Shown: positions 19,406 through 35,776 of the stretch, piece after piece
Layout of the letters: each line of letters opens with the position of its first letter
Position numbering within the stretch: the first letter of the stretch is position 1
Assembly (NCBI GenBank): GCA_964531645.1
Contig: CAZHEF010000001.1
Location: forward strand, 227,750-291,749
Length of the DNA: 64,000 nt
Source of the DNA: an uncultured Clostridia bacterium
GTDB lineage: Bacteria; Acidobacteriota; Aminicenantia; JBFLYD01; JBBIMS01
Direction of reading: 5' to 3'
The notes under the pieces: model-generated
Database searches by the model: none
Told to the model about the DNA's origin: nothing
The model's input: the letters and a program-made list of their open reading frames with translations, nothing else
Translations under genes and position numbers: made by a program

Positions 19406-19640
19406 TTATAATACCTCCTTAGTTTTTTCCATCTTTTTGCAAACCAATCTTATTTCTTTCTCTTCCACCATTTTCCATCTTAATTTTATAAGTTAAAAAT
19501 CTAAATTTCAAGTCCTTTTACGAGAAAGGCTGGAGTTTCATAATTCAAGTCTAAAAGCCATTTTGTCCCTATCTTTAGTTCCAGTGCTTGGAGAAATATT
19601 TTTACTTGACAGACTTTTTACCAGTGAATATTATTTTTAT

Positions 19641-20609
19641 ATGAAGAAAATTGTTATTTTTGGTATTTTATTTATCTTTCCTCTTTTGAGTATTTCATGC
19701 TCTAAAAAAGATAATTCATATCTTAAACTTTCTGGAATTATTGAAGGTAAAGAAATTGAAATTTCATCGAAAATTGCTGGAAGGATAAAGGAAATTTATG
19801 TTAATGAAGGAGACAGGGTTAGAGAAAATACTCTCATAGCTGTTATCGACTGTTCAGATTACGAGATACAGAAAAAACAAATTGAGGCTATCGTAGAATC
19901 TGCTTCAGCAAATCTGAGGCTTCTCGAGAAAGGTGCAAGGAACGAAGATATTAGAATGGCAGAAGAGGCATTTAAACAAGCAGAGGCAAATTTGAGAAGT
20001 GCGGAGAGGGATTGGATTAGAGCTAAAAGACTTATTGAAGAGAAGAGTATAACTGAAAAGCAATGGGAGGATGCAAGAACTAAATATGAATTTGCATTAG
20101 CCTATTTCAAACAGAGCGAAGAGAATCTTAAAAAAATAAAAAAAGGTGCGAGAGATGAGGAGATAGAACTTGCAAGGGCGAAGCTAAAAGAGGCAATGGC
20201 GGGTCTTGAAGCGGTCGAAAAGAGAATTAAGGATTGTGAGATTTTTTCTCCTTCTGACGGAATTGTATCACTAAAATTGAGGGAAAGGGGAGAAATCGTT
20301 AATATTGGAACTCCAATTTTAAAAATAATTGATACTGAAAAAGCCTATCTTTATGTTTACATACCCGAAAAGGAAATAGGATTGGTCAAGATTGGAGAGC
20401 TGGCAGAAGTAAGAATAGATTCATTTCCTGAAAGAAAATTTATTGGAAAAATTGTCTATATTTCTCCGGAAGCTGAATTTACTCCGAAGCAGATTCAAAC
20501 TGAGGATGAAAGGACAAAGCTTGTATTCAAGATGAAAATAGAATTGGAAAATAAAGAGAGTATTTTCAAGGTGGGAATGCCAGCAGATGCTTTCATAAAA
20601 ATAAAATAA
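19641..20609 (+). CDS. HlyD-family membrane-fusion (periplasmic adaptor) protein, YbhG-like
   Basis: Lipoprotein-like N-terminus (LLSISCSKK), coiled-coil middle and a beta-barrel C-terminus. ORF-track start is 19563; the internal ATG at 19641 is preferred. Confidence 0.8.
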   Translation: MKKIVIFGILFIFPLLSISCSKKDNSYLKLSGIIEGKEIEISSKIAGRIKEIYVNEGDRVRENTLIAVIDCSDYEIQKKQIEAIVESASANLRLLEKGARNEDIRMAEEAFKQAEANLRSAERDWIRAKRLIEEKSITEKQWEDARTKYEFALAYFKQSEENLKKIKKGARDEEIELARAKLKEAMAGLEAVEKRIKDCEIFSPSDGIVSLKLRERGEIVNIGTPILKIIDTEKAYLYVYIPEKEIGLVKIGELAEVRIDSFPERKFIGKIVYISPEAEFTPKQIQTEDERTKLVFKMKIELENKESIFKVGMPADAFIKIK

Positions 20610-20616
20610 AATCTCA

Positions 20617-21546
20617 ATGGAATTTGCAATTGAGATAAAAAATTTAGAGAAGAGATTTGGAAAGTTAGTAGCTTTAAAAAATTTAAATCTTCAAGTAGAA
20701 AAGGGAATTATTTTTGGTATTGTTGGTCCTGATGGAGCAGGGAAGTCTACATTATTGAAACTGATCTGTGGTTTACTACAGCAAGAGGAAGGAGGGATAA
20801 AAGTATTGGGGAAGAACATAAGAGAAGAATTTGATTTTATTAGAAAGAAGATAGGTTATCTTTCTCAGGAATTTAATCTTTATGAAGACCTTACAGTTGA
20901 TGAAAATATTGAATTTTTTGGAGAAATTTATAGAGTGAAGAATTGGAGGGAAAGAAGGGAGGAGATTCTTAAATTTACAAATTTAATACCATTCAGGAAG
21001 AGACTTGCAGAGAAATTATCGGGAGGGATGAAGAAAAAACTTGCCCTTGCTTGCACTTTAATCCATGAGCCAGAAATATTTATTCTTGATGAGCCCACTC
21101 TCGGAGTTGATCCAGTCTCAAGGATGGAATTGTGGAAAATTATATTTCAGCTTTCAAAAAGAGGTTTAACGGTAATTTTAAGCACTTCTTATATAGATGA
21201 GGCAGAAAGATGTAACAAAATAGCTGTTATGTATAATGGATGGATTCTTTATTCTGGGGAGCCTGAAAAATTCAAGAGAAAAATGGGAAGGATGATTCTT
21301 GAGATAACTGTTTCAGAGCCAATTAGAGCCTTTGAGATATTGAAAGCAAGCAATTTATCTGAAGATTTTAATATTTCAGGGGACAGAATAAGAATAATCT
21401 CAATTAATTTAGAAGATATAGAAAAAGAGATTTATAAAATCTTAGAACCCAATGGTATAAAAATTTTTGGGACTCGAGTTAAATTCCCTTCCCTTGAAGA
21501 TTCATTTGTTTCAATTTTAAAGGAGAGTAAAGTTGGAGAATTCTAA
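20617..21546 (+). CDS. ABC transporter ATP-binding protein
   Basis: Walker A GPDGAGKST, signature LSGGMKKKL, Walker B ILDEP. Confidence 0.9.
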   Translation: MEFAIEIKNLEKRFGKLVALKNLNLQVEKGIIFGIVGPDGAGKSTLLKLICGLLQQEEGGIKVLGKNIREEFDFIRKKIGYLSQEFNLYEDLTVDENIEFFGEIYRVKNWRERREEILKFTNLIPFRKRLAEKLSGGMKKKLALACTLIHEPEIFILDEPTLGVDPVSRMELWKIIFQLSKRGLTVILSTSYIDEAERCNKIAVMYNGWILYSGEPEKFKRKMGRMILEITVSEPIRAFEILKASNLSEDFNISGDRIRIISINLEDIEKEIYKILEPNGIKIFGTRVKFPSLEDSFVSILKESKVGEF

Positions 21547-22465
21547 TATAATTGAATGTTTTGAACTTACAAAAAAATTTGGGGATTTCACTGCGGTTGA
21601 CAGGGTCAGTTTCAGCATTTTAAAGGGGGAAGTTTTTGGATTTTTAGGTCCTAATGGAGCGGGAAAGTCAACTACAATAAGAATGATATGTGGTATACTT
21701 AAGCCAACTTCAGGAAAGGTTTATGTGGATGGAGATAATGTCTGGGAAAATCCTGAAAAAATAAGAAAAAAAATTGGATACATGTCCCAGAAATTCTCCC
21801 TTTACAACGATCTTACTGTTGAAGAGAACATAAATTTTTACAGTGGTATATATGGAATTTCAAAGGAAAAGCTCAAGGAAAGAAAAAATTGGATTATTGA
21901 AATGGCTGGGCTTCAAGGGATGGAAAAGTTAAAAACATCAGAGCTTTCGGGACCTTTTAAACAGAGACTAGCCTTTGGATGTGCATTAATTCATGAGCCA
22001 GAAATTGTTTTCCTCGATGAACCTACAAGTGGTGTGGACCCTATTTCAAGAAGGAAATTCTGGGAGAAAATATATTCCCTTGCTAAATCTGGTCTCACAT
22101 TTTTTGTGACAACCCATTTTATTGATGAGGCTGAAAATTGCCAGAATGTGGCTTTTATAAATAATGGAAGAATAACAGAAATTGGCTCTCCCCAGAGTTT
22201 AAAAGAAATTCTCAAGAAAAGGGAAGTTTATGAAATTGAATGCTCCCAATTGTTTAAAGCTTTTGCTCTGCTTGAGAAAAAAGGATGGGAGAATATATCG
22301 ATTTTTGGCAAGAAACTGAGGGTTGTGAGTAATGATTACGGCGAACTGGATAAAATTAACAATTTATTAACGAATGAGGGGATTGATATTCTTTCATCCG
22401 AAAAGGTTCTTCCTTCCCTTGAGGAAGTTTTTATTCATACTGTGAAAAAAGAAGACCATGTTTAG
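21533..22465 (+). CDS. ABC transporter ATP-binding protein (second ATPase)
   Basis: Walker A GPNGAGKST, LSGPFKQRL, Walker B FLDEP. Confidence 0.9.
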   Translation: MENSNIIECFELTKKFGDFTAVDRVSFSILKGEVFGFLGPNGAGKSTTIRMICGILKPTSGKVYVDGDNVWENPEKIRKKIGYMSQKFSLYNDLTVEENINFYSGIYGISKEKLKERKNWIIEMAGLQGMEKLKTSELSGPFKQRLAFGCALIHEPEIVFLDEPTSGVDPISRRKFWEKIYSLAKSGLTFFVTTHFIDEAENCQNVAFINNGRITEIGSPQSLKEILKKREVYEIECSQLFKAFALLEKKGWENISIFGKKLRVVSNDYGELDKINNLLTNEGIDILSSEKVLPSLEEVFIHTVKKEDHV

Positions 22466-23582
22466 ATCGATAATTGAGGTTTCAAAAAAAGAGTTTATCC
22501 ATCTCAAAAGAGACTGGAGATTTATGTTTGCGTTACTATTCATTCCTGCAATTTTATTAATTCTTTACGGATATGCTCTAAACTTTGATATTAAAAATGT
22601 TCCCTTTTCTGTGATTGATTTTGATAGGAGTAAGCTAAGCAGGGATTTTGTAAACTCCCTTAAAATTTCAGAGTATTTTAAACTGAAAAATTATTTGAAT
22701 GATTATCAAGAGGGGTTTTCCCTCCTTCAGAATGGAAAGATAGGCTTGTTGCTTGTCATTCCCATTAATTTCGAGAAATCCCTTGAAAGGGGGGAGAATG
22801 TTTATATCCAGAGTTTTATTGACGGTTCCAACTCTAATAAAGGGTCTATAGTTCTCGGATATCTTAATGCTTTTACAAATTACTTCAATCAAAAATCCCT
22901 CTTGAAAAGGTGGGGAATGTTAACAGGAAAAGAATTATCTCCCATTTCTTTGAGGGTTTATTATAATCAAGAATTGAAGACAACAAATTTTCTGATTCCC
23001 GGATTGATGGGTTTTATATTGATGATTACAACTGTTTTATCTACATCTCTATCCTTTGTCAGAGAAAAAGAAAGAAGAACCCTTGAGCAACTTTATGTTA
23101 CACCTTTGAACTCCCTTGAGTTTGCCATTGGTAAAATAACCCCCTACATTATTATTTCCCTTTTAGCTACTTCCATAATTGTTTTTTTTGCGAGATTCCT
23201 TTTTCAAATACAGATTAGAGGAAACAATTTTTTCCTCTTTGTTGCTACATGCATTTACATTTCCTGCACACTCCTGATGGGTTTTTTAATTTCAACTATT
23301 GCCGAGACCCAGAGAACAGCTTTTCTCTTTGCAGTTTTGACTTCCCTTCTCCCCTCTGTTCTTCTTTCAGGCTTTATTTTTCCTGTTGAAAATATGCCAA
23401 AGATAATTCAATTTTTTACATATTTTGTTCCAGCAAGATACTATATAAAATCAATCAGATACATAATTTTGAAAGGCGCTTCCTTCAGCTCTTTCTCAAG
23501 TCAGATTTTCTCTCTTCTAATCTTTTCTCTTTTTCTTTTGTTGATTATTCTCAAAAGAATGAAAATGGTGAAAGTAAAATGA
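22458..23582 (+). CDS. ABC-2 family permease (YbhS/YbhR-like)
   Basis: N-terminal TM, large periplasmic loop and a C-terminal 5-TM bundle. Shared GFIFPVENMPKIIQFF motif. Confidence 0.8.
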   Translation: MFRSIIEVSKKEFIHLKRDWRFMFALLFIPAILLILYGYALNFDIKNVPFSVIDFDRSKLSRDFVNSLKISEYFKLKNYLNDYQEGFSLLQNGKIGLLLVIPINFEKSLERGENVYIQSFIDGSNSNKGSIVLGYLNAFTNYFNQKSLLKRWGMLTGKELSPISLRVYYNQELKTTNFLIPGLMGFILMITTVLSTSLSFVREKERRTLEQLYVTPLNSLEFAIGKITPYIIISLLATSIIVFFARFLFQIQIRGNNFFLFVATCIYISCTLLMGFLISTIAETQRTAFLFAVLTSLLPSVLLSGFIFPVENMPKIIQFFTYFVPARYYIKSIRYIILKGASFSSFSSQIFSLLIFSLFLLLIILKRMKMVKVK

Positions 23583-24688
23583 AAAAGATTCTTTTTATAG
23601 TAGTGAAGGAATTTATCCAGCTCAGAAGAGATAGAATGATGTTTCCTCTTTTATTTATTGCCCCAATTTTACAACTGATAATTCTTGGATATGTTGCAAA
23701 CGTCGATGTTAAAAACATAAAGATGGGAATTATAGATATGGATAATTCCCTTTTGAGTAGAGAGTTGATAGAAAGCTTCCCTTCCTCAGGATATTTCATT
23801 AAAAGGGTTTCCTTTATTGATGTGAAAAGGATAGATAAATTGATTGAAAGGGGAGATGTATCCCTTGTATTATTTATACCCAAAGGATTAGAAAAAAATA
23901 TTTCAAAGCTCGATCATGCGAGGGTTCAGCTCATTATTGATGGAACAGACGCAACAGTAGCAACAATTGCGATGAATTATTCCTCCCAGATAATAAGTAA
24001 ATTTTACATGAAAAGCTCTGAAAAAATCCTGCCTTCCGATTTTGGTTGGATAGAGCTTCAAAGTAGGGTTCTTTACAATCCTGAGTTGAGGGGCTCGAAT
24101 TTTATGGTTCCTGCAATTATAACCTTGCTTATTACTCTAATAATCGGTGTTCTCTCATCAATGGCAATTGTAAGGGAAAGGGAAGGAGGAACCCTTGAAC
24201 AGCTAATTGTAACACCAATAAAACCATATCAGTTTATAATAGGGAAAGTAGCTCCATTTGTTCTGATTGCCTATCTGGACATTTCAATCATTACACTTGT
24301 TGCAATTTATTGGTTTGAAATTCCTGTTAAAGGAAGTATACCTCTTCTCTATTTATTTTCAGGTTTCTACATTCTTTATACAGTTGGTATTGGCGTATTT
24401 CTTTCAACAATTTCAAAGACTCAGCAGCAAGCAATGATTACTGCAATGTTCTTTATTTTCTTGCCTTCCATTTTACTTTCTGGATTTATTTTCCCGGTAG
24501 AAAATATGCCAAAGATAATCCAATTTTTTACTAATTTTGTTCCATTAAAGTTTTTCCTTGAGATTGTTAGAGGAATCTTTTTGAAAGGGAATGGTTTCAA
24601 AGAACTTTATGATGAAGCATCCTTCATATTTCTCTGGGGTTTAGCGGTTCTTTTATTCAGCTTTCTGCGATTCCGAAAAAAACTGTAG
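23579..24688 (+). CDS. ABC-2 family permease (paralog)
   Basis: Same architecture and the same SGFIFPVENMPKIIQFF motif as the upstream gene. Confidence 0.8.
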   Translation: MKKILFIVVKEFIQLRRDRMMFPLLFIAPILQLIILGYVANVDVKNIKMGIIDMDNSLLSRELIESFPSSGYFIKRVSFIDVKRIDKLIERGDVSLVLFIPKGLEKNISKLDHARVQLIIDGTDATVATIAMNYSSQIISKFYMKSSEKILPSDFGWIELQSRVLYNPELRGSNFMVPAIITLLITLIIGVLSSMAIVREREGGTLEQLIVTPIKPYQFIIGKVAPFVLIAYLDISIITLVAIYWFEIPVKGSIPLLYLFSGFYILYTVGIGVFLSTISKTQQQAMITAMFFIFLPSILLSGFIFPVENMPKIIQFFTNFVPLKFFLEIVRGIFLKGNGFKELYDEASFIFLWGLAVLLFSFLRFRKKL

Positions 24689-24737: not shown

Positions 24738-26819
24738 ATGTGGAAAAGGATAATTTTATCAATTGTTAGTGTTTTTTTATTGTTTACTATTTCATCGGCA
24801 TTTACCATTGAAGGTATTATGAAAGCTCCTTTTCCATCAGGACTTGTCTCATTCAAAAGCAGGGATAGAGTTGCATGGGTTTTCAATATTGAAGGGAGAA
24901 GAAATATATGGGTTGCAGATGGACCGGAATGGACACCAAGAAAAATTACTAATTACGACCAAGACAACGGCATTGAAATTTCCCATCTTTCATTTTCACC
25001 AGATGGCTCAATAATTGTTTTTGTCCTTGGTGGTTCCCCCAACAGGCAGGGAGAGTTTCCAAATCCTACTTCAGATCCAAGAGGAGCAAAACAGGAGATA
25101 TGGGCTGTAAATGTTGAGGATGGAAAGACATGGAATCTTGGTGAAGGTTCAAATCCAGAGATATCTCCTCTTGGTGATATTGTTGCATTTTTGAGGCAGG
25201 GAAGAATTTATTACTCAAGCATTGATGGCTCAAAAAAATCCCTGTTGATGTTTTTTGCAAGAGGTAGAATTTCCAATTTTTCATGGTCTCCTGATGGTAG
25301 TAAGATTGCCTTTGATAGCGTGAGGGAAGATCATAGTTTCATTGGGATATTTGATTTAAAGGAAAATTCTATAAAATGGCTTTCTCCATCAATTGAGTTT
25401 GATTCAAACCCTGTTTGGTCTTCCGACGGTAGATACATTGCCTTTTTCCGATTCCCGGGAGGAGAAAGAAGGTCTTATATGACTGGAGGTTCTTCATTCT
25501 CTGTTACGGTTTGTGATGTTCAAGCAGAAAAATGCTTGGAAGCCTGGAGATGTCCAGATTCTTCTGGAGGCTTTGCCCAGAATTATCCAGCCAGTCCTAT
25601 TTTATGGGCAGGAGACAGGATTATTTTCTATTCCGAACATGATGGATGGCTGCATTTATATTCTCTTTCACCAAAGGGTGGAGATGCTATTTGCCTAACA
25701 CCTGGAGAGTTCGAAGTTGAAAATGTAGCGGTTTCCCCCGATGGAAAAACCATATACTTTAATGCTAATAAGAATGATATTGATAGAAGACATATTTGGG
25801 CAGTATCTCCTTCAGGTGGGGTTCTTCAGCAGATTACCTCAGGAAAAGGGATTGAGTGGAGCCCTGTTGTTTCCTCCTCGGGAAAATTTCTTATATATTT
25901 TTGTTCAACCGCTTATCAGCCCGCTTCTCCTGCGGTCTTAGAAATTTCCTCTAAGAAGCAAAAACTTATTTCCAGCCATTTAATTCCAAAGGAATTTCCT
26001 ATCAATGAACTTGTTGAGCCTCAGCAGGTTATTTTTAAATCTCCTGATGGACTCAATATTCATGGGCAACTTTTTCTTCCAAAGAACATTAAAAAAGAGG
26101 AGAAACTACCTGCGGTAATTTATCTCCATGGAGGTCCTATAAGGCAGATGCTCCTTGGATGGCATTATAGCTCTTATTATCACAATGCTTACGCTTTCAA
26201 CCAATTTTTAGCATCAAAAGGTTACATCGTTCTCTCGGTTAACTTCAGAAGCGGAATTGGTTATGGAAGAGCATTCAGGACTGCTCCAAATCAGGGTCCA
26301 AGGGGCGCTTCAGAATATCAGGATGTTGTTGCGGGAGCAAAGTATCTTCAGGCAAGAAATGATGTTGACCCCCAAAGAATTGGTTTATGGGGTGGCTCTT
26401 ACGGAGGATATTTGACAGCGTTAGGGCTTGCAAGGGATTCCGAAATTTTTTCTGCGGGAGTTGATCTCCATGGAGTGCACGACTGGTCATTGAGGGCAAG
26501 GAGAAGGGATGGAGGAGGTTGGGACATAAAAGAGGAGGAGTATAAAATTGCCTATGACTCTTCTCCAATTGCAGATGTCTATTTCTGGAAATCTCCTGTT
26601 CTTTTTGTTCACGGTGATGATGATAGAAATGTTGATTTTATTCAGACGACTATTCTTGCCCAGAAACTAAGGGAATTGAACAAAGCCCATTTTGAAATTC
26701 TTGTTATTCCTGATGAAGTCCACAGTTTTTTGATACATAAGAGCTGGATTGAAGTTTTCAAAAAATCCTTTGATTTCTTTGAGAGATTTTTAAAAGGAAC
26801 TGCAAAAGAGACTAAATAA
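24738..26819 (+). CDS. S9 prolyl-oligopeptidase-family serine peptidase with N-terminal beta-propeller
   Basis: Signal peptide. TolB-like repeats. GGSYGGY (GxSxG) nucleophile elbow. Confidence 0.8.
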   Translation: MWKRIILSIVSVFLLFTISSAFTIEGIMKAPFPSGLVSFKSRDRVAWVFNIEGRRNIWVADGPEWTPRKITNYDQDNGIEISHLSFSPDGSIIVFVLGGSPNRQGEFPNPTSDPRGAKQEIWAVNVEDGKTWNLGEGSNPEISPLGDIVAFLRQGRIYYSSIDGSKKSLLMFFARGRISNFSWSPDGSKIAFDSVREDHSFIGIFDLKENSIKWLSPSIEFDSNPVWSSDGRYIAFFRFPGGERRSYMTGGSSFSVTVCDVQAEKCLEAWRCPDSSGGFAQNYPASPILWAGDRIIFYSEHDGWLHLYSLSPKGGDAICLTPGEFEVENVAVSPDGKTIYFNANKNDIDRRHIWAVSPSGGVLQQITSGKGIEWSPVVSSSGKFLIYFCSTAYQPASPAVLEISSKKQKLISSHLIPKEFPINELVEPQQVIFKSPDGLNIHGQLFLPKNIKKEEKLPAVIYLHGGPIRQMLLGWHYSSYYHNAYAFNQFLASKGYIVLSVNFRSGIGYGRAFRTAPNQGPRGASEYQDVVAGAKYLQARNDVDPQRIGLWGGSYGGYLTALGLARDSEIFSAGVDLHGVHDWSLRARRRDGGGWDIKEEEYKIAYDSSPIADVYFWKSPVLFVHGDDDRNVDFIQTTILAQKLRELNKAHFEILVIPDEVHSFLIHKSWIEVFKKSFDFFERFLKGTAKETK

Positions 26820-26822
26820 ATA

Positions 26823-27443
26823 ATGCGATTAGGAAGAAAGATTGAGAGGATATTCTTAGCAGGTCTCTTTGCAACACTTCCCTTAATAATTACTTTTGTT
26901 CTTCTAAAAATACTTTTTGAGGCGGTTGATGGTCTTCTCTCTCCAGTTTTTCGAATAATTTTTAAAAGGAATATCCCCGGTCTGGGTCTTCTTTCAACTG
27001 TTCTTTTAATTTTCCTTGTGGGCTTCATGGTTAGAAACCTAATGGGAAGATGGCTTATTGGAAGAATTGAGGAGTTTATTTCAAAGATTCCTTTTATTAA
27101 AACCATTTATACATCAGCAAAACAGCTTATATTTTCATTCTCTCCTGAAAATAAAAAGGGCTTGAAAAGAGTGGTAGCAGTAAAGTTTTTCGGTGATAAT
27201 TACTCCATTGGATTCGTTACTAATGAGACAGTTATGATTATTGGTGGGGAGGAAAAGAAGGCATACTCAATCTTTCTTCCCACAACCCCATCTCCTGTGA
27301 CTGGATTTTATCTATTAATACCAATGGAAAGTGTAATTCATCTTGATCTTACTGTTGAAGATGCTATAAAAATACTTATATCCGGAGGAGCTGTCCTTCC
27401 CCAAAATTTTATTGAAGAGAAGATGGATTTAATTGAAAGGTAA
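26823..27443 (+). CDS. DUF502-family membrane protein
   Basis: 206 aa with two N-terminal TM helices. Resemblance to the DUF502 architecture. Confidence 0.6.
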   Translation: MRLGRKIERIFLAGLFATLPLIITFVLLKILFEAVDGLLSPVFRIIFKRNIPGLGLLSTVLLIFLVGFMVRNLMGRWLIGRIEEFISKIPFIKTIYTSAKQLIFSFSPENKKGLKRVVAVKFFGDNYSIGFVTNETVMIIGGEEKKAYSIFLPTTPSPVTGFYLLIPMESVIHLDLTVEDAIKILISGGAVLPQNFIEEKMDLIER

Positions 27444-27477
27444 GCTTAATTAAAATATAATTCTTTTTTGAAAGGAA

Positions 27478-29253
27478 TTGGATATGAAAAAAATAATTTT
27501 AATTTTGATTTTTTTCTTTTTAATTTCAAACCTTTTTTGTGCAATTCCAGTTTTTCCTTTAAAAGACATGAAGCCGGGACTAACAGGAAAAGGGAAAACA
27601 GTTTTTCAGGGGAGAAAGATTGAAGAGTTTGATGTAGAAATTCTTGGAATTCTGAAAAATCCAATACCCGGGAAGAATCTTATAATTGCAAGATTGAAAG
27701 GAGATATTATCCAGAAGACAAATGTTATTCAAGGGATGAGCGGAAGTCCTGTTTATATTGATGGAAAATTTCTTGGGACCATCTCCTATGCATTCCCATG
27801 GTCAACAGAGCCAATAGCAGGAATTACTCCTGCGGAAGATATATTCTCTATACCAAAGACTCAACCCCCTCCATCACCTTCTCGGAGTTTCATTCCTTTT
27901 AAAAAATCCTTAAGTCTTGAAGAGATTGAGAAAATTGCTTCTTCATTAAATGTATCTTCCTCTCTAAAAGGGATTTTCCATGAGACTCCAGTTCTGACCA
28001 ATTTTTTAAGCTCCTCTTCCTTAATAAAATCTCTTTTCTCATGGATGGGCCTTTCATCCTTTTCATTTCTTCCTGTAGATCAGGGAGAGAAGCTTAAAGG
28101 AAGATTTTTTGATGGCGATCCCATTGCAGTTCAGTTGATCAGAGGTGATTGGGATCTTTCAGCTGTTGGGACTGTATCATATGTGGATGGAGACTCCTTT
28201 TATGCATTCGGGCACCCTCTCTTTAACCTTGGACCTGTTGATTTCCCTGTTGCAAAAGCTGAGATAATAACAGTTGTTCCCAATCAGGAAGCATCTTTTA
28301 AACTTGCAACCATTGGCGATAGCGTTGGAAGATTAGTTCAGGATAGATACAGTGGCATCTTTGGAAAAATTGGTGAATCCCCCAATTTAATCCCATTAAA
28401 AATTGAGATAGATAAAGGGAAATCAGGGAAAAAGGAACTAAAATTTGAAATTGTTAATCAGAGATTCTTATCCCCACTACTTGTTTTAATCTCTATTTAC
28501 AATTCCCTTCTCAGTGAGTTTCTCGGCAATGAGTTGGAAGAAACAAATTTCCATGGAGATGTAACCATATCCCTTGATGGTGAAGTTGTTATTTCAGAAG
28601 GTAGGAATGTGAAGATTGAAGATTTTTTCTCAGGAGAGTCAGCGTTGTTTGATACTTCTGTGCTTCCAGCATCAGTCGTTTATTATCTTTTAAATAATGA
28701 ATTTGAAATTGTAAAGGTTCAGGATATAAAACTGAAGATTTCACTCTTTGAAAATTTTGATAGTGTGAGTATTGATAGAGTATGGGTTGAGGGGAATGAG
28801 GTTGAATCTAATAAAAATGTCAATTTAAAGGTTTTCTTGAAGACATGGAGAGGGAAGGAAAGAGTTGAGGAAGTTAGCCTTCCGGTTCCCAAGTTGAGGC
28901 CAGGAGAAGAGCTCGAGGTTATAATTGCTGATGCAGAATCCATGTATTACTTCGAGATAAAAACTTACAAGGGAGGGGTGATGCCAGGTAGTACGGATCA
29001 ACTTATCAGGGCTTTGAATAATTTGAGGAAAAATAACAGAATTTATTTCAAATTAAGGATACCTTCTGAAGCATCATTTTTAAAAGGAGAAGAGATCTCA
29101 TCAGTTCCTCTATTTTTTAAGTCAGTTATAGGCTCTTCAAGGGTTTCATCATCTCCAGTTCCTGTTTCAAGCTCAACATTAAAGGAATATCAGTATCCTC
29201 TTGATAAATTTGTTAAGGGATTTAAAGTGATAAACTTAAAAATAAAGGAGTGA
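27478..29253 (+). CDS. secreted SpoIVB-like (MEROPS S55-type) serine peptidase homolog
   Basis: Signal peptide. IQGMSGSPVYIDGKFLGTISYAF matches SpoIVB GMSGSPI...G.VTHVF. FYAFGHP and SGIFGKIG match the SpoIVB His-region and following segment. Confidence 0.55.
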   Translation: MDMKKIILILIFFFLISNLFCAIPVFPLKDMKPGLTGKGKTVFQGRKIEEFDVEILGILKNPIPGKNLIIARLKGDIIQKTNVIQGMSGSPVYIDGKFLGTISYAFPWSTEPIAGITPAEDIFSIPKTQPPPSPSRSFIPFKKSLSLEEIEKIASSLNVSSSLKGIFHETPVLTNFLSSSSLIKSLFSWMGLSSFSFLPVDQGEKLKGRFFDGDPIAVQLIRGDWDLSAVGTVSYVDGDSFYAFGHPLFNLGPVDFPVAKAEIITVVPNQEASFKLATIGDSVGRLVQDRYSGIFGKIGESPNLIPLKIEIDKGKSGKKELKFEIVNQRFLSPLLVLISIYNSLLSEFLGNELEETNFHGDVTISLDGEVVISEGRNVKIEDFFSGESALFDTSVLPASVVYYLLNNEFEIVKVQDIKLKISLFENFDSVSIDRVWVEGNEVESNKNVNLKVFLKTWRGKERVEEVSLPVPKLRPGEELEVIIADAESMYYFEIKTYKGGVMPGSTDQLIRALNNLRKNNRIYFKLRIPSEASFLKGEEISSVPLFFKSVIGSSRVSSSPVPVSSSTLKEYQYPLDKFVKGFKVINLKIKE

Positions 29254-29257
29254 GATA

Positions 29258-31390
29258 ATGAAAAGAATGATTATTTTTCTTTTGATTTTTCCAATTTTAC
29301 AAATTTATTCATCTCTTCCTAACAAGTTCAGCAAAGAAGGAGAAGAATTTTTAAAGGGTAAATTTACAGGGACTGCTTTATTCGAAGAAGGGATAATCCT
29401 TTCCTTCAAAGACAAAAAGATTGATTCCCCTTCCGAGGAATTTTATTTCTCTACAATATCTGACTCCAAGGGAAATTTGTATCTGGGAACAGGCCATGAC
29501 GGAAAGTTATGGCTGATTGATTCAAAAGGGAAAGCCTCTCTTTTTTTTGATGCACCTGAAATGGATATTCTTGCTCTTGCCTTCGATTCTTCAGGAAATA
29601 TATATTGTGCAACATCTCCCAACGGAAAGGTATATAAAATATCTTCTGATGGTAAATCGAATGTATTTTTTGATCCGGAGGAAAAATTTATCTGGGATAT
29701 AGTTCTTGATGAAAAAGGAAATCTATATGTTGCTTGCGGCGAGAAGGCTATTATTTATAGAGTCTCTCCTGATGGCTCAGCAAAGGATATTTTCACTTCC
29801 TCTGAAAATCATATTTTTAAAATTCTTCTCACAAAAGAGGGAATACTGGCAGGAACAGGAGGGGAAGGACTCCTGATAAAGGTTTCAGACAATAAATTTT
29901 CTGTTGTTTATGACCCTCCCTATAAAGAAGTGAAGGAAGTAATTCTTGATCCCCAGAATAATATCTGGATAGGTTGTAATGCAAAAACCTCAGAACAAAA
30001 AATGGCTCCTCCAAAAGAAACGCCTATAAGTGTTATGCCATCAGTCTCGGTTGAGGTAGTAGCATTTGCCATTCCCGCTGAGACCAAAGAAGTTAAGATT
30101 CCTGAGGAAGAAAAGGGGGGTGGAATTTTTAAAATAACTCCTTCAGGACTTGCAAAGGAGGTGTGGTCTTCCTCTGATGAGGTTGTTTATTCTTTAAGTT
30201 ATTCAAGAAAAGAGGAGAAAATTTACTTTGGAACAGGGCCAAAAGGGAGAATTTATGCTATAGATAGTAATGAGAAAAAATATCTCGTTCTTCAGAAAGA
30301 TTCTGAAAGTATATATAGGATAACTGACAATTATTTTATAACCAATAACCCTGCCAAATTGTTCAGCATTGAACCATCCCAAACCCTTGAAGGTGAATAT
30401 ATTTCTGAGATAATTGATGCGGGGATGATTTCCAACTGGGGAAGAATAAACTGGGTTGCAGATATTCCTGAAGGAACATCTGTTCAGCTCATGACAAGAA
30501 GTGGGAACAAAAAGGTTGTTGATGAAAGCTGGAGCGGATGGTCTCCTCCATACAAAAATATTCTGGGTGAAAATGTCCTTAGTCCCAGGGGAAGATTCAT
30601 TCAGTTCAGAGCTCTTCTAAAATCCTCTCTCTCCCTGAAAACTCCTGTTATAAGAAGGGTTGAGATATTTTACCTTCAGGTAAATGTACCTCCTCTTATA
30701 AAGAGCATAAAAGTTCATCCTCCCCATGAAACATTTCAGAAGCCTTTGAGCCTTGAAGAGGAAATCATGGGTTATGAGAAGGATAAGGGTTTGCCAGAAA
30801 AGGAAAGAACCGATGAGGTATTGACTTTAATGGCTAAAACTACTGGAAAGAAGATCTATAAAAAAGGGTTCAGGACGATTTCATGGGAGGCTGAAGATCC
30901 TAACAAGGACAAACTTTCCTATTCTGTACTTATTAAGGAGGAAGGGGATAAAGATTGGAGGGTAATTAAAAGTGATTATACTGAAACTATAATTTCCCTC
31001 GACACATTTATCTTTGAAGATGGAATATATAGAGTAAAAATCGTTGCTTCGGATGTTCTTTCCAATCCTTTAGATTTAGCCCTTCAAAGTGGAAAAGTTT
31101 CTCTCCCATTTTATATTGACAATACTCCTCCTACTGTTGAAGGAATATCCTTTCAAGAAATTGCTGGTAAAAGGCAGCTTCTTTTCACCGCAAAGGACAA
31201 TATTACTCCCATAAAAGAAGTCTATTATTCATACGAATTAGGGAAATGGCTTGTGGCTTTCCCGAAGGATGGAATTTGTGACAGTCCAGTTGAGGATTTT
31301 GTTCTTGAAATTCCGAGAGATAAAAAGGATATTGTTATAAAAGTTGTGGATACTCTTGACAATGTAGCGGTTGTAAAAAAGAGCTTTTAG
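29258..31390 (+). CDS. secreted beta-propeller repeat protein with C-terminal beta-sandwich (Y_Y_Y/FN3-like) domains
   Basis: Signal peptide. Repeated GN[LI]Y.G/A.. motifs (GNLYLGTG, GNIYCAT, GNLYVACG, NNIWIGC) typical of Reg_prop-type propeller blades. Confidence 0.5.
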   Translation: MKRMIIFLLIFPILQIYSSLPNKFSKEGEEFLKGKFTGTALFEEGIILSFKDKKIDSPSEEFYFSTISDSKGNLYLGTGHDGKLWLIDSKGKASLFFDAPEMDILALAFDSSGNIYCATSPNGKVYKISSDGKSNVFFDPEEKFIWDIVLDEKGNLYVACGEKAIIYRVSPDGSAKDIFTSSENHIFKILLTKEGILAGTGGEGLLIKVSDNKFSVVYDPPYKEVKEVILDPQNNIWIGCNAKTSEQKMAPPKETPISVMPSVSVEVVAFAIPAETKEVKIPEEEKGGGIFKITPSGLAKEVWSSSDEVVYSLSYSRKEEKIYFGTGPKGRIYAIDSNEKKYLVLQKDSESIYRITDNYFITNNPAKLFSIEPSQTLEGEYISEIIDAGMISNWGRINWVADIPEGTSVQLMTRSGNKKVVDESWSGWSPPYKNILGENVLSPRGRFIQFRALLKSSLSLKTPVIRRVEIFYLQVNVPPLIKSIKVHPPHETFQKPLSLEEEIMGYEKDKGLPEKERTDEVLTLMAKTTGKKIYKKGFRTISWEAEDPNKDKLSYSVLIKEEGDKDWRVIKSDYTETIISLDTFIFEDGIYRVKIVASDVLSNPLDLALQSGKVSLPFYIDNTPPTVEGISFQEIAGKRQLLFTAKDNITPIKEVYYSYELGKWLVAFPKDGICDSPVEDFVLEIPRDKKDIVIKVVDTLDNVAVVKKSF

Positions 31391-31510: not shown

Positions 31511-31526
31511 TGTTTCACGTGAAACA
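31511..31526. promoter_or_regulatory. parS: parS centromere site (perfect 16-bp palindrome TGTTTCACGTGAAACA)
   Basis: Exact match to the canonical parS consensus tGTTtCACGTGAAAca. Overlaps the parA start codon. Confidence 0.8.
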
Positions 31527-32287
31527 TGAGGCATAAAATATTATCTATAGCCAATCAGAAAGGTGGTGTTGGTAAAACAACCACCGCAATAAATCTCTCT
31601 GCCTGTCTCTCAGCAGCAGAAAAGAGAGTCCTTCTAATAGATATGGACCCCCAGGGGAATGCCACCAGTGGATTGGGTTTGAAAAGGGAGGATGAAGGGG
31701 GTTCCCTTTACGATGTCTTAATGAATGGAAATCCCATGGAGAAAATAATAACTTCTACTGAGGTTCCTTTCCTTTTCCTATGTCCTTCTTCCCGTTCCCT
31801 CTTTGAGGCAGAGATTTCTCTTCATGGAAAGGAAGGAAGGGAAAAAAAATTGCTTTCAGCTCTTAACCCAGTTGCAAATCAATATGATTACATTTTAATT
31901 GATTGTCCTCCATCTCTTGGTTATTTAACCCTGAATGCTCTTGTGGCTTGTGATTCGGTCATCATTCCTTTACAATGTGAATATTATGCAATGGAAGGGC
32001 TTTCAGACCTTCTTAACACTCTTGAAGAGGTGAAAAAATACCTGAATTCCCATCTGGAAATTGAGGGAATATTACTAACCATGTTCGATGAAAGGACAAA
32101 TCTTTCCCATGAGGTTGAAAAGGAAATAAGGGAAGTTTTCGGACAAAAGGTTTTTAAAACCGTTGTTCCTAGAAGTGTGAAGCTTAGTGAAGCACCAAGC
32201 TTTGGAAAGCCCATAATTCTTTACGATATTAAATCTAAGGGGGCGATTGCATATTTAAATCTTGCAAAGGAGATATTGGGAAGATGA
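31526..32287 (+). CDS. parA: chromosome partitioning ATPase ParA/Soj
   Basis: Deviant Walker A KGGVGKTT. 253 aa. Confidence 0.9.
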   Translation: MRHKILSIANQKGGVGKTTTAINLSACLSAAEKRVLLIDMDPQGNATSGLGLKREDEGGSLYDVLMNGNPMEKIITSTEVPFLFLCPSSRSLFEAEISLHGKEGREKKLLSALNPVANQYDYILIDCPPSLGYLTLNALVACDSVIIPLQCEYYAMEGLSDLLNTLEEVKKYLNSHLEIEGILLTMFDERTNLSHEVEKEIREVFGQKVFKTVVPRSVKLSEAPSFGKPIILYDIKSKGAIAYLNLAKEILGR

Positions 32288-33117
32288 CAAGAAAAGTTCT
32301 TGGTAGAGGAATTAAGGCATTATTATCCGATGAAGTTACCCTCCTCAAAGATGAGAAATTTGTTGAGATTGATATTGACCTCATTCATCCGAACCCATAT
32401 CAGCCAAGAAAAAATTTCTCTGAAGAAAGCATGAAGGAGCTTGTGGAGTCAATAAAGGAGGCGGGCATAATTCAGCCTGTTCTTGTTACTCCTGATGAAA
32501 GTGGTTATACCCTTGTAGTGGGAGAAAGGAGATGGAGGGCAGCCCAGATATTAGGACTGACAAAAATTCCAGCTGTTGTTAAAAATATAGAGCCTTCCCA
32601 GCAACTGGAACTTGCTCTCATTGAAAATCTTCAGAGGGAGGATCTTAATCCCATAGAAGTTGCAACAGCTTATCAGAAATTGATTGAAATTTCAAATCTT
32701 ACCCATGAGGATCTTGCAAAGAAAGTTGGAAAGGATCGTAGTTCAGTAACAAATTATCTTAGACTTTTGAAATTACCCGATGAGATAAAAGAGATGATTT
32801 CTGAAGGTAAAATTGATATGGGACATGCAAGGACGCTTCTTGCCGTTGATGATCCAGAGATACAGAGAAAAATGGCAAGAATAGTTTATGAAAAAGGGCT
32901 CTCTGTGAGAGAGCTTGAAAGAATTTTAAAGAGAGGCTCTTATAAGAAAAAAAGAGAGGGGTTTGTTTCAATGCCAATTCTTGAAGAGGAGCTCAGGAAA
33001 ATATTTTCAACAAAGGTCAAAGTTATGAAAAGAGGCAAGGGAGGCTATCTTTTAATAAGATTTTATTCTGATGAAGAGCTTGAAAGGATTTGCAATATAA
33101 TTAAAGGAGGAAATTGA
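32284..33117 (+). CDS. parB: chromosome partitioning protein ParB/Spo0J
   Basis: ParB box GERRWRAA and an HTH region. Confidence 0.9.
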   Translation: MTRKVLGRGIKALLSDEVTLLKDEKFVEIDIDLIHPNPYQPRKNFSEESMKELVESIKEAGIIQPVLVTPDESGYTLVVGERRWRAAQILGLTKIPAVVKNIEPSQQLELALIENLQREDLNPIEVATAYQKLIEISNLTHEDLAKKVGKDRSSVTNYLRLLKLPDEIKEMISEGKIDMGHARTLLAVDDPEIQRKMARIVYEKGLSVRELERILKRGSYKKKREGFVSMPILEEELRKIFSTKVKVMKRGKGGYLLIRFYSDEELERICNIIKGGN

Positions 33118-33118
33118 A

Positions 33119-33472
33119 ATGAAGTTTAAGAAAGAAGGAGAAGCAGGAGATTTTACTGGTTTTATTGATGAAGGAGCGGAGATAAATGGAGAGCTAAGAT
33201 TTAAAAGTATATTTAGAGTTGATGGACAGATAAAGGGAAAGGTTTTTTCTGATTCTGAACTTCACATTGGGGAGAAGGGAGTTGTTGAAGCTGAAATTGA
33301 AATTGGGAGTGTTTTTATCAATGGGATATTCAGGGGAAAAATTCTTGCAAAAAACATAGTCCATATTCATGCCAGTGGAAAGGTTTTTGGGGAGATAGAA
33401 ACTCCGGTTCTGGTAATTGAAGAGGGTGCAATTTTCCAGGGTAATTGCAAAATGCAAGACAAAACAGTATGA
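33119..33472 (+). CDS. bactofilin (DUF583 beta-helical cytoskeletal protein)
   Basis: 117 aa. Repetitive hydrophobic/Gly beta-helix pattern (GELRFKSIFRVDGQIKGKV...GSVFINGIFRGKI). Confidence 0.8.
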   Translation: MKFKKEGEAGDFTGFIDEGAEINGELRFKSIFRVDGQIKGKVFSDSELHIGEKGVVEAEIEIGSVFINGIFRGKILAKNIVHIHASGKVFGEIETPVLVIEEGAIFQGNCKMQDKTV

Positions 33473-34185
33473 AAAGGGGTGTAGCAATAATTCCAGCCCG
33501 TTATCATTCAACAAGATTTCCTGGGAAACCTCTTGTTCTGCTTAAAGGGAAGCCACTCATTCAGCATGTCTGGGAAAGAGCATCAAAGGCAAAGAATATC
33601 GAGAAGGTTTTAGTAGCAACAGATAATGAAAAGATTGGAAGGATTGTGAAGGAATTTGGTGGAGAATGTATAATGACATCTCAAGAGCATAAAAGTGGAA
33701 CTGATAGAGTTGCGGAGGTCATAGAAAAAATGGATTTCGGGATAATAGTAAATGTCCAGGGAGATGAACCCATGATTGAACCCATGCTGGTTGATAGAAT
33801 TGTTGAGGTTCTTAATGATGAAAGAGTTCCCATGGCATCGATTTATGAGATTTGGGATGATAGGGAATTATTTTTTAATCCCAATATTGTGAAAGTAGTT
33901 GTGGACAAAGATGGATTTGCAATTTATTTTTCAAGAAGCCCGATCCCATATTCAAAAGATAATTCCAAATTTTTTCGCCATGTCGGTATTTATGGATATA
34001 AAAAAGATGTTCTCCTTAATCTTGTAAGGCTTCCCAGATCATCCCTTGAAATTAAAGAGAATCTTGAACAGCTAAGAGCTATTGAAAATGGAATAAAAAT
34101 AAAAATGATAGAGTCAAAGAAGAAAACAAAGGGGGTCGACACCCCCGAGGATTTAATGGAAGTGGAGAGGTTATTGGATGAGTAA
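33445..34185 (+). CDS. kdsB: 3-deoxy-manno-octulosonate cytidylyltransferase (CMP-KDO synthetase)
   Basis: VAIIPARYHSTRFPGKPL N-terminus. A start at the internal ATG near 33469 is possible. Confidence 0.85.
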   Translation: MQNARQNSMKRGVAIIPARYHSTRFPGKPLVLLKGKPLIQHVWERASKAKNIEKVLVATDNEKIGRIVKEFGGECIMTSQEHKSGTDRVAEVIEKMDFGIIVNVQGDEPMIEPMLVDRIVEVLNDERVPMASIYEIWDDRELFFNPNIVKVVVDKDGFAIYFSRSPIPYSKDNSKFFRHVGIYGYKKDVLLNLVRLPRSSLEIKENLEQLRAIENGIKIKMIESKKKTKGVDTPEDLMEVERLLDE

Positions 34186-35776
34186 ATTTATTTTTGTTAC
34201 TGGTGGAGTTCTTTCTTCCCTTGGAAAGGGGATTGCATCTGCTTCTATAGGAACCCTTCTCGAGAGCATGGGATTTAAAATAAGTTTCCTCAAATTTGAC
34301 CCATATTTAAATGTTGATCCAGGGACACTCAGCCCCTATCAGCATGGAGAGGTTTATGTTACTGAGGATGGAGCAGAAACAGATCTTGACCTTGGACATT
34401 ACGAGAGATTTACAAGTATTACAACCTCTCAGGCTAACAACTGGACAGCGGGAAGGATATATGCATCAATAATCGAGAAAGAGAGAAGGGGAGATTATCT
34501 TGGAAAGACTGTTCAGGTGATACCCAATGTAACAGATGAAATAAAAAATGCTATTTTTGCAGTTGCAAAGGATGTTGATATAGTGATAGTGGAGGTGGGA
34601 GGAACTGTGGGAGATATAGAGAGCCTTCCCTTCCTTGAGTCAATAAGGCAGATGAGACTTGAGCGGGGTTCAAAGAACACATTGTTTATCCATCTAACTC
34701 TTATCCCATACATACCTACAGCAGGAGAAATAAAGACAAAACCTACTCAGCACAGTGTGAAGGAGCTAAGGGAAATAGGAATTCAACCCGACATCCTTCT
34801 TTGCAGAACCGATAGATTTCTTTCAAAGGAGATAAAATCAAAAATAGCTCTCTTTACAAATGTGGCGGTGGAATCAGTAATCACAGCCAAGGATGTTGAA
34901 TCTGTTTATGAAGTCCCTCTTGTTTTTCATCAGGAAGGGCTTGACAGCATAATTATTAAGTATCTTGATCTTCCTGGAAGGAATGCTAATCTTGAAAACT
35001 GGCTTGAAATGGTAGATAGAATAAAAAATCCCCTCGACGAAGTGGATATATATGTTGTGGGCAAATATACAATTTTGGCTGATTCCTATAAAAGTCTTGT
35101 AGAAGCTCTAAGACACGGAGGAATGGATCACAGGTTAAAAGTGAACATAAAATGGGTGAAAGCAGAGGAAATTGAGGAAGGAAATGAGGCCTTGTTAAAG
35201 GAGGCTCATGGAATTTTAATACCAGGAGGATTTGATACAAGGGGTATAGAGGGAATGATAAAAACTGTCACCTATGCAAGGGAGAAAGGGATCCCCTTCT
35301 TTGGAATATGTTTAGGAATGCAATGTGCAGTAATTGAATATGTGAGAAATGTTTGTAAAATAAAGGACGCCCATAGCGAAGAGTTCGCCCCTTCAACAAA
35401 AGATAAAGTCTTTATGAAATTGACTGAACTAAGGGGAATTGATCTTATGGGTGGAACAATGAGACTCGGTGGGTACAGATGCATTCTTGATGAGAAATCC
35501 CTCGCCCACAAAATTTATGGAAAAAAGGATATTGTTGAAAGACACAGGCATAGATATGAGTTCAATCCAGCATTTCAGGATCTGATAATTAGTAATGGTA
35601 TGATGGTGAGCGGAATAAATCCAGAAAGGAATCTTGTTGAGATTGTGGAATTGAAGGAGCATCCATGGTTTCTCGGATGCCAGTTCCACCCTGAGTTTAA
35701 GTCAAAACCTTTCAGCCCCCATCCTCTATTTGCGAGTTTTATAAAGGCTGCTTACAAATACAAGAAAAAGAAATGA
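34178..35776 (+). CDS. pyrG: CTP synthase
   Basis: MSKFIFVTGGVLSSLGKG N-terminus. Glutaminase domain GICLGMQ. Confidence 0.95.
   Translation: MSKFIFVTGGVLSSLGKGIASASIGTLLESMGFKISFLKFDPYLNVDPGTLSPYQHGEVYVTEDGAETDLDLGHYERFTSITTSQANNWTAGRIYASIIEKERRGDYLGKTVQVIPNVTDEIKNAIFAVAKDVDIVIVEVGGTVGDIESLPFLESIRQMRLERGSKNTLFIHLTLIPYIPTAGEIKTKPTQHSVKELREIGIQPDILLCRTDRFLSKEIKSKIALFTNVAVESVITAKDVESVYEVPLVFHQEGLDSIIIKYLDLPGRNANLENWLEMVDRIKNPLDEVDIYVVGKYTILADSYKSLVEALRHGGMDHRLKVNIKWVKAEEIEEGNEALLKEAHGILIPGGFDTRGIEGMIKTVTYAREKGIPFFGICLGMQCAVIEYVRNVCKIKDAHSEEFAPSTKDKVFMKLTELRGIDLMGGTMRLGGYRCILDEKSLAHKIYGKKDIVERHRHRYEFNPAFQDLIISNGMMVSGINPERNLVEIVELKEHPWFLGCQFHPEFKSKPFSPHPLFASFIKAAYKYKKKK

Follow-up and report, generated by a model that had tools for sequence, protein, structure and literature searches.

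The PA clan, which is among the largest and best-studied enzyme superfamilies, is regarded as defined by two features: the His-Asp-Ser order of the catalytic residues, and a His-bearing barrel that is encoded before the Ser-bearing barrel. The locus described here raises the question of whether a natural protein family encodes the two barrels in the opposite order. The analyzed window is a stretch of 64,000 nucleotides from an uncultured bacterium of the lineage Acidobacteriota; Aminicenantia (contig CAZHEF010000001.1, positions 227,750 to 291,749). It contains an open reading frame (ORF) for 591 amino acids at positions 27478-29253 of the forward strand, exactly as given in the first-pass annotation of this DNA. 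In that annotation, the product was described as a homolog of the SpoIVB-type (S55) peptidases with the Ser motif preceding the His region, and the chymotrypsin-like fold was proposed to have undergone a barrel swap or circular permutation. The proposal survived all tests that were run. The protein is likely a barrel-swapped (circularly permuted) S55-like serine protease whose two barrels are encoded in reverse order. Residue numbers follow the ORF, counted from the TTG codon at 27478, and the features are listed in Table 1.

The Ser motif is found where the first-pass annotation placed it, with GMSGSPVY at residues 86-93 and GTISYAF at residues 100-106. The Pfam family Peptidase_S55 (PF05580) is matched with 41.9 bits, above the curated threshold of 25, with the E-value 1.5e-10. 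This match is partial: residues 41-106 correspond to the profile positions 127-194 of 210, which represent the Ser-bearing C-terminal half only. PF05580 is found in all 49 aligned family members, and the other members cover the profile positions about 107-201. An alignment to the Peptidase_S55 hidden Markov model (HMM) had been named in the first-pass annotation as a check that could place the Ser after the His; the Ser half alone is matched, N-terminally, and the Ser is not placed there. TIGR02860 is matched at positions 312-380 of 402 with 36.9 bits, against an equivalog cut-off of 305.25. The sole sequence match in PDB was SpoIVB (9lnf_A), obtained through the Ser region with the E-values 1e-5 for the single sequence and 4e-9 for the family profile. 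In profile-profile comparison with hhalign, residues 23-125 were aligned to SpoIVB residues 311-413 with the E-value 1.7e-15, or 7e-18 with a deeper family alignment, while the score of the same residues against the N-terminal barrel of SpoIVB was at the noise level. On these profile matches, barrel 1 is the Ser barrel of S55. It begins directly after the predicted signal peptide, which leaves no space for a His barrel upstream.

The order in the reference protein was read from full-length SpoIVB sequences translated from 80 Bacillaceae genome loci (L001-L080). In Bacillus SpoIVB, YGALGH236 is followed by NSPFGIFG (GIFG at 294-297) and then by GMS378GSPI, as the first-pass annotation had stated. 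In the window protein, the His region also lies as had been described, FYAFGHP at residues 241-247 and SGIFGKIG at residues 292-299. Thus, His236 precedes Ser378 in SpoIVB, while here Ser88 precedes His246, 158 residues apart. The sequence G[MIV]SGSP occurs once in the whole protein, in agreement with the earlier statement that no second Ser motif is present. The resulting order is Ser88, (Asp224), His246, and Asp289. It differs from the His-Asp-Ser order, with the His barrel first, of HtrA/DegP/DegS, Rv3671c, MamO (S1C), SplE, V8, alpha-lytic, and viral 3C proteases.

The swapped order is not a peculiarity of one sequence. More than 6,400 homologs were recovered by a word-indexed search. The top 120 of them are all about 575-660 aa long and are covered at 95-100%, and the named ones are from Aminicenantes/Acidobacteriota. 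Homologs matching end to end span ~560-720 aa. An exhaustive search of 50%-identity representatives revealed 3,543 clusters at E<=1e-30. At E<=1e-3 the number rises to 8,893, a figure that probably includes canonical SpoIVB matched via the Ser barrel. The top 150 representatives are mostly full-length, end-to-end matches with a few fragments. Among close homologs, GMSGSP precedes xFGH in 121 of 121, with a spacing of 157-176 residues. In a deep set of 266 sequences, which includes 145 distant representatives, 263 have the Ser motif before the His motif, with a spacing of 131-258 and no barrel upstream. The ortholog search suggested in the first-pass annotation thus revealed the same segment order almost throughout. 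The Ser-then-His order is fixed throughout a very large family, which is labelled in databases by the partial S55 domain only.

Conservation was examined in 146 sequences, consisting of the window protein and the 145 representatives, which are 25-41% identical to it. G86, S88, G89, S90, P91, and H246 are conserved in all 146, while D224 and D289 are conserved in 144. Across the whole protein, the only polar residues kept at >=97% are S88, S90, D224, T232, H246, S273, and D289. H246 is the only invariant His. Such a sequence pattern is characteristic of a working Ser/His/Asp site that is divided between two barrels.

The structure prediction proposed in the first-pass annotation also agrees with the swap. 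AlphaFold2 folds both barrels confidently, with the Ser block before the His block. The model of the whole protein (mean predicted local distance difference test score (pLDDT) 76, predicted template modelling score (pTM) 0.73) consists of a beta-rich block at residues 36-118, a low-confidence region at 129-206, a second beta-rich block at 215-298, and well-predicted C-terminal domains. Residues 207-591 modelled alone, without the Ser barrel, gave a pLDDT of 80.7. The best structural matches of this model in PDB were again PA proteases, each over 61-75 residues, corresponding to one barrel; they include an alpha-lytic-type protease (1.8 Å over 61 residues) and MamO. H246 lies just after the strand beta3, and D289 is found 43 residues further on. 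In chymotrypsin, His57 likewise follows beta3 (AAH57C), and 45 residues separate His57 from Asp102.

At the sequence level, the link is weak but collinear: the profile of barrel 2 was aligned with that of the N-terminal barrel of SpoIVB by hhalign with a score of 22.4 (P 0.002). The column-shuffle null was 11.8 +/- 2.8, and none of 100 shuffles reached the score. In this alignment, AxGTVT falls on GIGTMT, AFGH246 falls on ALGH236, and the ungapped 14-mer VGRLVQDRYSGIFG falls on IGDINRNSPFGIFG, ending with GIFG. Covariation was analyzed by mean-field direct coupling analysis (DCA) on the 266 sequences (effective number of sequences about 180), which is underpowered for contacts between the barrels. 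Fifty-two of the top 60 pairs lie within one domain and follow antiparallel ladders. Those in barrel 2 connect beta1 with beta4 (P215-A261, I216-V258, and A217-A259), beta4 with beta5 (I263-A277, I264-T278, and D255-R285), beta1 with beta2, beta2 with beta3, and beta3 with beta6 (D239-K297). The strand order 1-2-3-6-5-4 is the Greek key of PA barrels, and barrel 1 shows an equivalent ladder pattern. The model, the covariation, and the weak profile match all indicate that barrel 2 is an independent PA-type Greek-key barrel carrying the His. Two six-stranded Greek-key beta-barrels, the fold of the PA clan, are present in the protein.

In the mechanism proposed here, the protein would be a Sec-exported serine endopeptidase with the SpoIVB (S55)/chymotrypsin (PA-clan) fold and the barrels in reverse gene order. 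Barrel 1 (residues 23-125) would supply the nucleophile Ser88 and the backbone of the oxyanion hole (G86-M-S88). A long and variable linker (residues 126-210), probably disordered judging from the model, would lead to barrel 2 (residues 211-300), which would supply the general base His246 and the orienting Asp. The orienting Asp would be D289 from its topological position, with D224 as the alternative. The two barrels would pack against each other and bring Ser, His, and Asp together at the interface, as in canonical PA proteases. The C-terminal ~290 residues, predicted to form a docked beta-grasp-like module and two beta-rich domains, would probably bind the substrate or the propeller protein encoded just downstream. 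Convergence of Ser, His, and Asp in three dimensions is expected from this arrangement, and the conserved residues suggest catalytic activity as a serine protease. It is on the whole rather probable that the family represents a natural, ancient, and very successful permutation of the PA fold, with at least 3,500 50%-identity clusters, mostly from Aminicenantes/Acidobacteriota, of active serine proteases.

Several results weigh against this interpretation. Searches of PDB and Pfam with barrel 2 by HMMER, with the single sequence and with the profile, returned nothing even at E<=10. The HMM of the SpoIVB N-terminal barrel scored at most 6.5 bits against the family sequences, compared with 6.6 for the reversed-sequence control. 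The hhalign score of barrel 2 against the C-terminal barrel of SpoIVB, 20.4, is nearly equal to that against the N-terminal barrel. This is not surprising because the two PA barrels are themselves related; barrel 2 is therefore identified as the His barrel mainly through the catalytic motifs AFGH and GIFG and through invariance. Among the top 100 pairs of the underpowered DCA, 11 connect the two barrels, a weak enrichment over the 8.4 expected. I94-I263 is the strongest of them, at rank 10, and I84-V266, D95-P253, G96-A229, and K97-G238 flank the Ser loop. Finally, the literature search revealed no biochemical study of any member of the family.

If barrel 2 were unrelated to the His barrel, only the Ser barrel would derive from S55, and the downstream region would be another small beta-barrel, such as an MreC-, PilZ-, or OB-like one. 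The protein would then be a half-protease or pseudo-enzyme: a non-catalytic binding or scaffold protein, or an enzyme with another partner residue, for example in a Ser/Lys dyad with K275. The sequence-search failures described above leave room for this explanation, which is nevertheless unlikely. The single invariant His sits in AFGH after beta3, at the place of ALGH236 of SpoIVB and AAH57C of chymotrypsin. Both Asp residues are kept in 144 of 146 sequences, whereas nine have R, M, or E in place of K275. Three collinear motifs align with the N-terminal barrel of SpoIVB at a score that none of 100 shuffles reached. Perfect retention of GMSGSP across more than 3,500 clusters is also not expected of a pseudo-enzyme.

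A two-chain or trans-assembled protease, in which the linker is cleaved by autoprocessing or the barrels pair between subunits in a domain-swapped oligomer, is considered improbable. The linker is long, disordered, and variable, as reflected in the wide range of the Ser-to-His spacing, and SpoIVB itself autoprocesses and multimerises (PMC12502668). The weak intra-chain covariation between the barrels is also compatible with it, and covariation cannot separate cis from trans contacts. On the other hand, AlphaFold2 folds the monomer with the pTM given above, and the deep alignment contains no conserved cleavage motif in the linker. Trans assembly would be a variant of the barrel-swapped protease and not a contradiction to it, because the gene order would still be swapped.

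The start codon bears on the last alternative. The true start is probably the ATG at 27484, two codons past the TTG at 27478, because AGGA is located 7 nt 5' of this ATG and the closest homolog, 93% identical, begins with MKKIIL. The protein would then be 589 aa long, and the ORF residue numbers are therefore +2 relative to the likely protein. The N-terminus is poorly conserved across the homologs, and the signal peptide predicted there suggests export via Sec. An artefact is practically refuted, be it a gene that was called wrongly or cut short, a His barrel concealed upstream by a frameshift, or the tandem duplicate with ordinary order that the first-pass annotation had set against its own proposal. 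Although the mechanical ORF begins at TTG and not at the likely ATG, the preceding DUF502 gene ends at 27443, the 35-nt gap to the ORF contains the likely ribosome-binding site, and a signal peptide is predicted at the N-terminus. Independent assemblies have yielded thousands of homologs with the same length and architecture, and the Ser motif and the invariant His are both single. By these sequence features, both the tandem duplicate and the gene-calling artefact are excluded.

The barrel-swapped protein can be compared with SpoIVB from B. subtilis (MEROPS S55, PDB 9LNF). The Ser barrels are homologous: they are ~29% identical over a stretch of ~100 residues, and both contain GMSGSP. In the His barrel, the motifs GTxT, A(F/L)GH, and GIFG are common to both proteins and collinear. 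Both proteins are exported, by prediction in the case of the window protein. Besides the order of the catalytic residues, the window protein differs in the absence of PDZ, in about 290 extra C-terminal residues, and in the absence of a sporulation context, and its family has a disordered inter-barrel linker of 85-170 aa. With respect to S55, the protein passes the PF05580 cut-off and has the Ser motif GMSG(S/A)P; it has no full-length collinear match, no His upstream of the Ser, and no PDZ, and its score is below the TIGR02860 cut-off.

The acid of the triad is another difference. D289, nearly invariant in the family, aligns without gaps to Asn290 of SpoIVB, a residue shared by all 80 Bacillaceae sequences (e.g., L003, residues 284-297). 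The Asp in RD213SAAGIGT of SpoIVB is also invariant, and D213 aligns beside D224 of the family. In the 2025 crystal structure of SpoIVB, H236 is close to residue 378, D363 is about 24 Å away, and the triad was described as 'unusual' (PMC12502668). Since D289 falls on the invariant N290, SpoIVB may have replaced the canonical acid with Asn, while the window family keeps Asp. Because the canonical Asp is retained, the family may resemble the ancestral active site of S55 more closely than SpoIVB does. That the alignment places N290 of SpoIVB at the position of the triad Asp is relevant to the question of the unusual triad raised by that structure.

No sequence-level similarity to HtrA/S1C or other named PA proteases was found. 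Targeted full-text literature searches found no natural permuted PA-clan protease. Natural circular permutation that keeps the catalytic residues has a precedent in the permuted papain-fold peptidases (PPPDE), which have another fold with a papain-like Cys nucleophile and have no bearing on the PA clan. A survey of the PA clan lists His/Asp/Ser for all serine families and makes no mention of permutation (PMC6524800). The canonical order of His, Asp, and Ser is also stated in the abstract of another survey (PMC3434108), where permutation is likewise not mentioned. S55 peptidases were reported as 'widely detected' in acidobacteria, by MEROPS count in a genome paper (PMC8841776), and this count was the only relevant result of the literature search on S55 proteins outside spore-formers.

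The linker between the barrels shows the lowest conservation in the protein (0.31) and 23% gaps in the deep alignment. A degenerate PDZ domain in the linker was considered and rejected: the hhalign comparison with SpoIVB gave the E-value 0.57, and no PDZ match was found in the window protein, the 49 aligned members, or the variants with long linkers. Two such variants, P0334 (721 aa) and P0383 (691 aa), have ~100 extra residues between the barrels, where no Pfam domain was detected.

The first-pass annotation also mentioned a second KFEIV-like strand at around residue 315. The strand is present, and its position is slightly later, with LKFEIV at residues 321-326. R222-E324 is the second-strongest covarying pair, and the first hairpin of the module at residues 301-408 packs on beta1 of barrel 2. 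This module shows weak resemblance to superantigen-like proteins, composed of a barrel plus a beta-grasp domain, in Foldseek. The hairpin was also considered as a scar of a duplicated Ser barrel. Its scores against the Ser barrel are 11.6-15.3, which 1-8 of 120 shuffles reach (P 0.01-0.07). These statistics are marginal, and both the covariation and Foldseek favour the beta-grasp-like module; it is more likely that the hairpin is part of such a module packed on the His barrel. No significant relative was found for the C-terminal ~290 residues, and residues 409-591, although confidently modelled, have no detectable relatives. Seemingly invariant residues in this region decay in the distant representatives (E441 in 42 of 146 and K518 in 38 of 146). 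In the last domain, the motif LNNLRKNNRIYFK, at residues 515-523 (NLRKNNRIY, 29020-29046), is strongly conserved among Aminicenantes members, while it decays in the distant representatives, as the count for K518 shows. The motif may be a lineage-specific interaction surface.

Table 1. Features of the barrel-swapped peptidase gene and its neighbours (window coordinates unless a locus is given).
Feature	Coordinates	Strand	Remarks
Whole gene, predicted exported barrel-swapped S55-like serine peptidase	27478..29253	+	591 codons from TTG
Likely ribosome-binding site AGGA	27473..27476	+	From sequence; putative role
Predicted signal peptide, residues 1-22	27478..27543	+	KK, hydrophobic run, ...LFCA; predicted from sequence
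Barrel 1, residues 23-125, plus short helix	27544..27852	+	Counterpart of C-terminal Ser barrel of SpoIVB/PA proteases
GMSGSP motif, residues 86-91	27733..27750	+	S88 presumed nucleophile, G86 presumed oxyanion-hole glycine; aligns with SpoIVB S378
Inter-barrel linker, residues 126-210	27853..28107	+	Pro/Ser-rich, variable length, pLDDT <50
Barrel 2, residues 211-300, PA-type, six-stranded	28108..28377	+	Presumed general base and acid; counterpart of SpoIVB N-terminal His barrel
D224, second near-invariant Asp	28147..28149	+	Alternative triad acid; adjoins position aligned with SpoIVB D213
AFGH motif, residues 243-246	28204..28215	+	H246 presumed catalytic base; aligns with SpoIVB ALGH236
QDR, residues 288-290	28339..28347	+	D289 candidate triad acid, beta5-beta6 turn; putative role
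Beta-beta-alpha-beta-beta-alpha module, residues 301-408	28378..28701	+	Beta-grasp-like, packs on barrel 2 beta1; from predicted secondary structure and covariation
LKFEIV hairpin	28387-28455	+	Within the module of residues 301-408
Two C-terminal beta-rich domains, residues 409-591	28702..29250	+	
Conserved downstream partner, 710-aa protein	29258..31390	+	N-terminal beta-propeller, hydrophobic signal-like N-terminus; starts 4 nt past protease stop
Propeller partner genes in other contexts	L081 9832-12012; L085 7784-9964; L086 7829-9988		
S9 prolyl-oligopeptidase/DPP-IV-like protein	24738-26819	+	Hydrophobic N-terminus, PD40 propeller repeats; Pfam E 2e-39
DUF502 membrane protein	26823-27443	+	Directly upstream of protease

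The downstream partner has an N-terminal PQQ/Reg_prop-like beta-propeller and a long C-terminal region without a family match. The pair of protease and propeller genes is also found in three other diverged contexts, where the other neighbours mostly differ. The propeller gene encodes ~710-726 aa and lies 4-14 nt 3' of the protease gene in every context examined. The copies in the window and L081 share 39% identity (E-value 2e-177). The two genes probably constitute a functional module. The S9 peptidase and DUF502 genes are not conserved as neighbours of the protease in the other genomes examined.

Further genes surround the locus. Positions 19563-24688 (+) contain an operon-like run of genes for an HlyD-family membrane-fusion protein, two ABC ATPases, and two ABC-2 permeases. 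Positions 31526-35776 (+) contain ParA-like and ParB genes, followed by genes for a KdsB-like cytidylyltransferase and CTP synthase. The presence of ParAB suggests proximity to the chromosomal origin region, and the KdsB-like gene fits an organism bearing lipopolysaccharide (diderm). At 26642-27106 (-), a 154-aa ORF rich in Lys, Arg, and Ile runs antisense to the 3' end of the S9 peptidase gene and the 5' end of the DUF502 gene; it is most likely spurious, a shadow ORF. SpoIVB acts in the sigma-K sporulation checkpoint, with SpoIVFA, BofA, and SpoIVFB as partners; sporulation-related Pfam families were absent among the window genes scanned, from 19.5 to 36 kb. The non-sporulating Gram-negative context assumed in the first-pass annotation is supported by the names of the homologs (Aminicenantes/Acidobacteriota) and by the KdsB-like gene.

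If the barrel-swapped arrangement is true, this large natural family would be a new topological variant of the PA clan, and the two homologous barrels of a textbook fold could be wired in either order. The swap would bear on the origin of the two-barrel fold from one barrel that was duplicated and fused, and on the tolerance of the fold to rewiring, which is of interest for protein engineering. Family members are labelled automatically as "SpoIVB peptidase S55 domain-containing" or "SpoIVB peptidase precursor", which wrongly implies sporulation in non-sporulating diderms, and alignment-based checks of the active site would probably score them as lacking the His. For the organisms themselves, the pair of protease and beta-propeller would represent an envelope module, so far uncharacterised, of a lineage that is abundant and uncultured.

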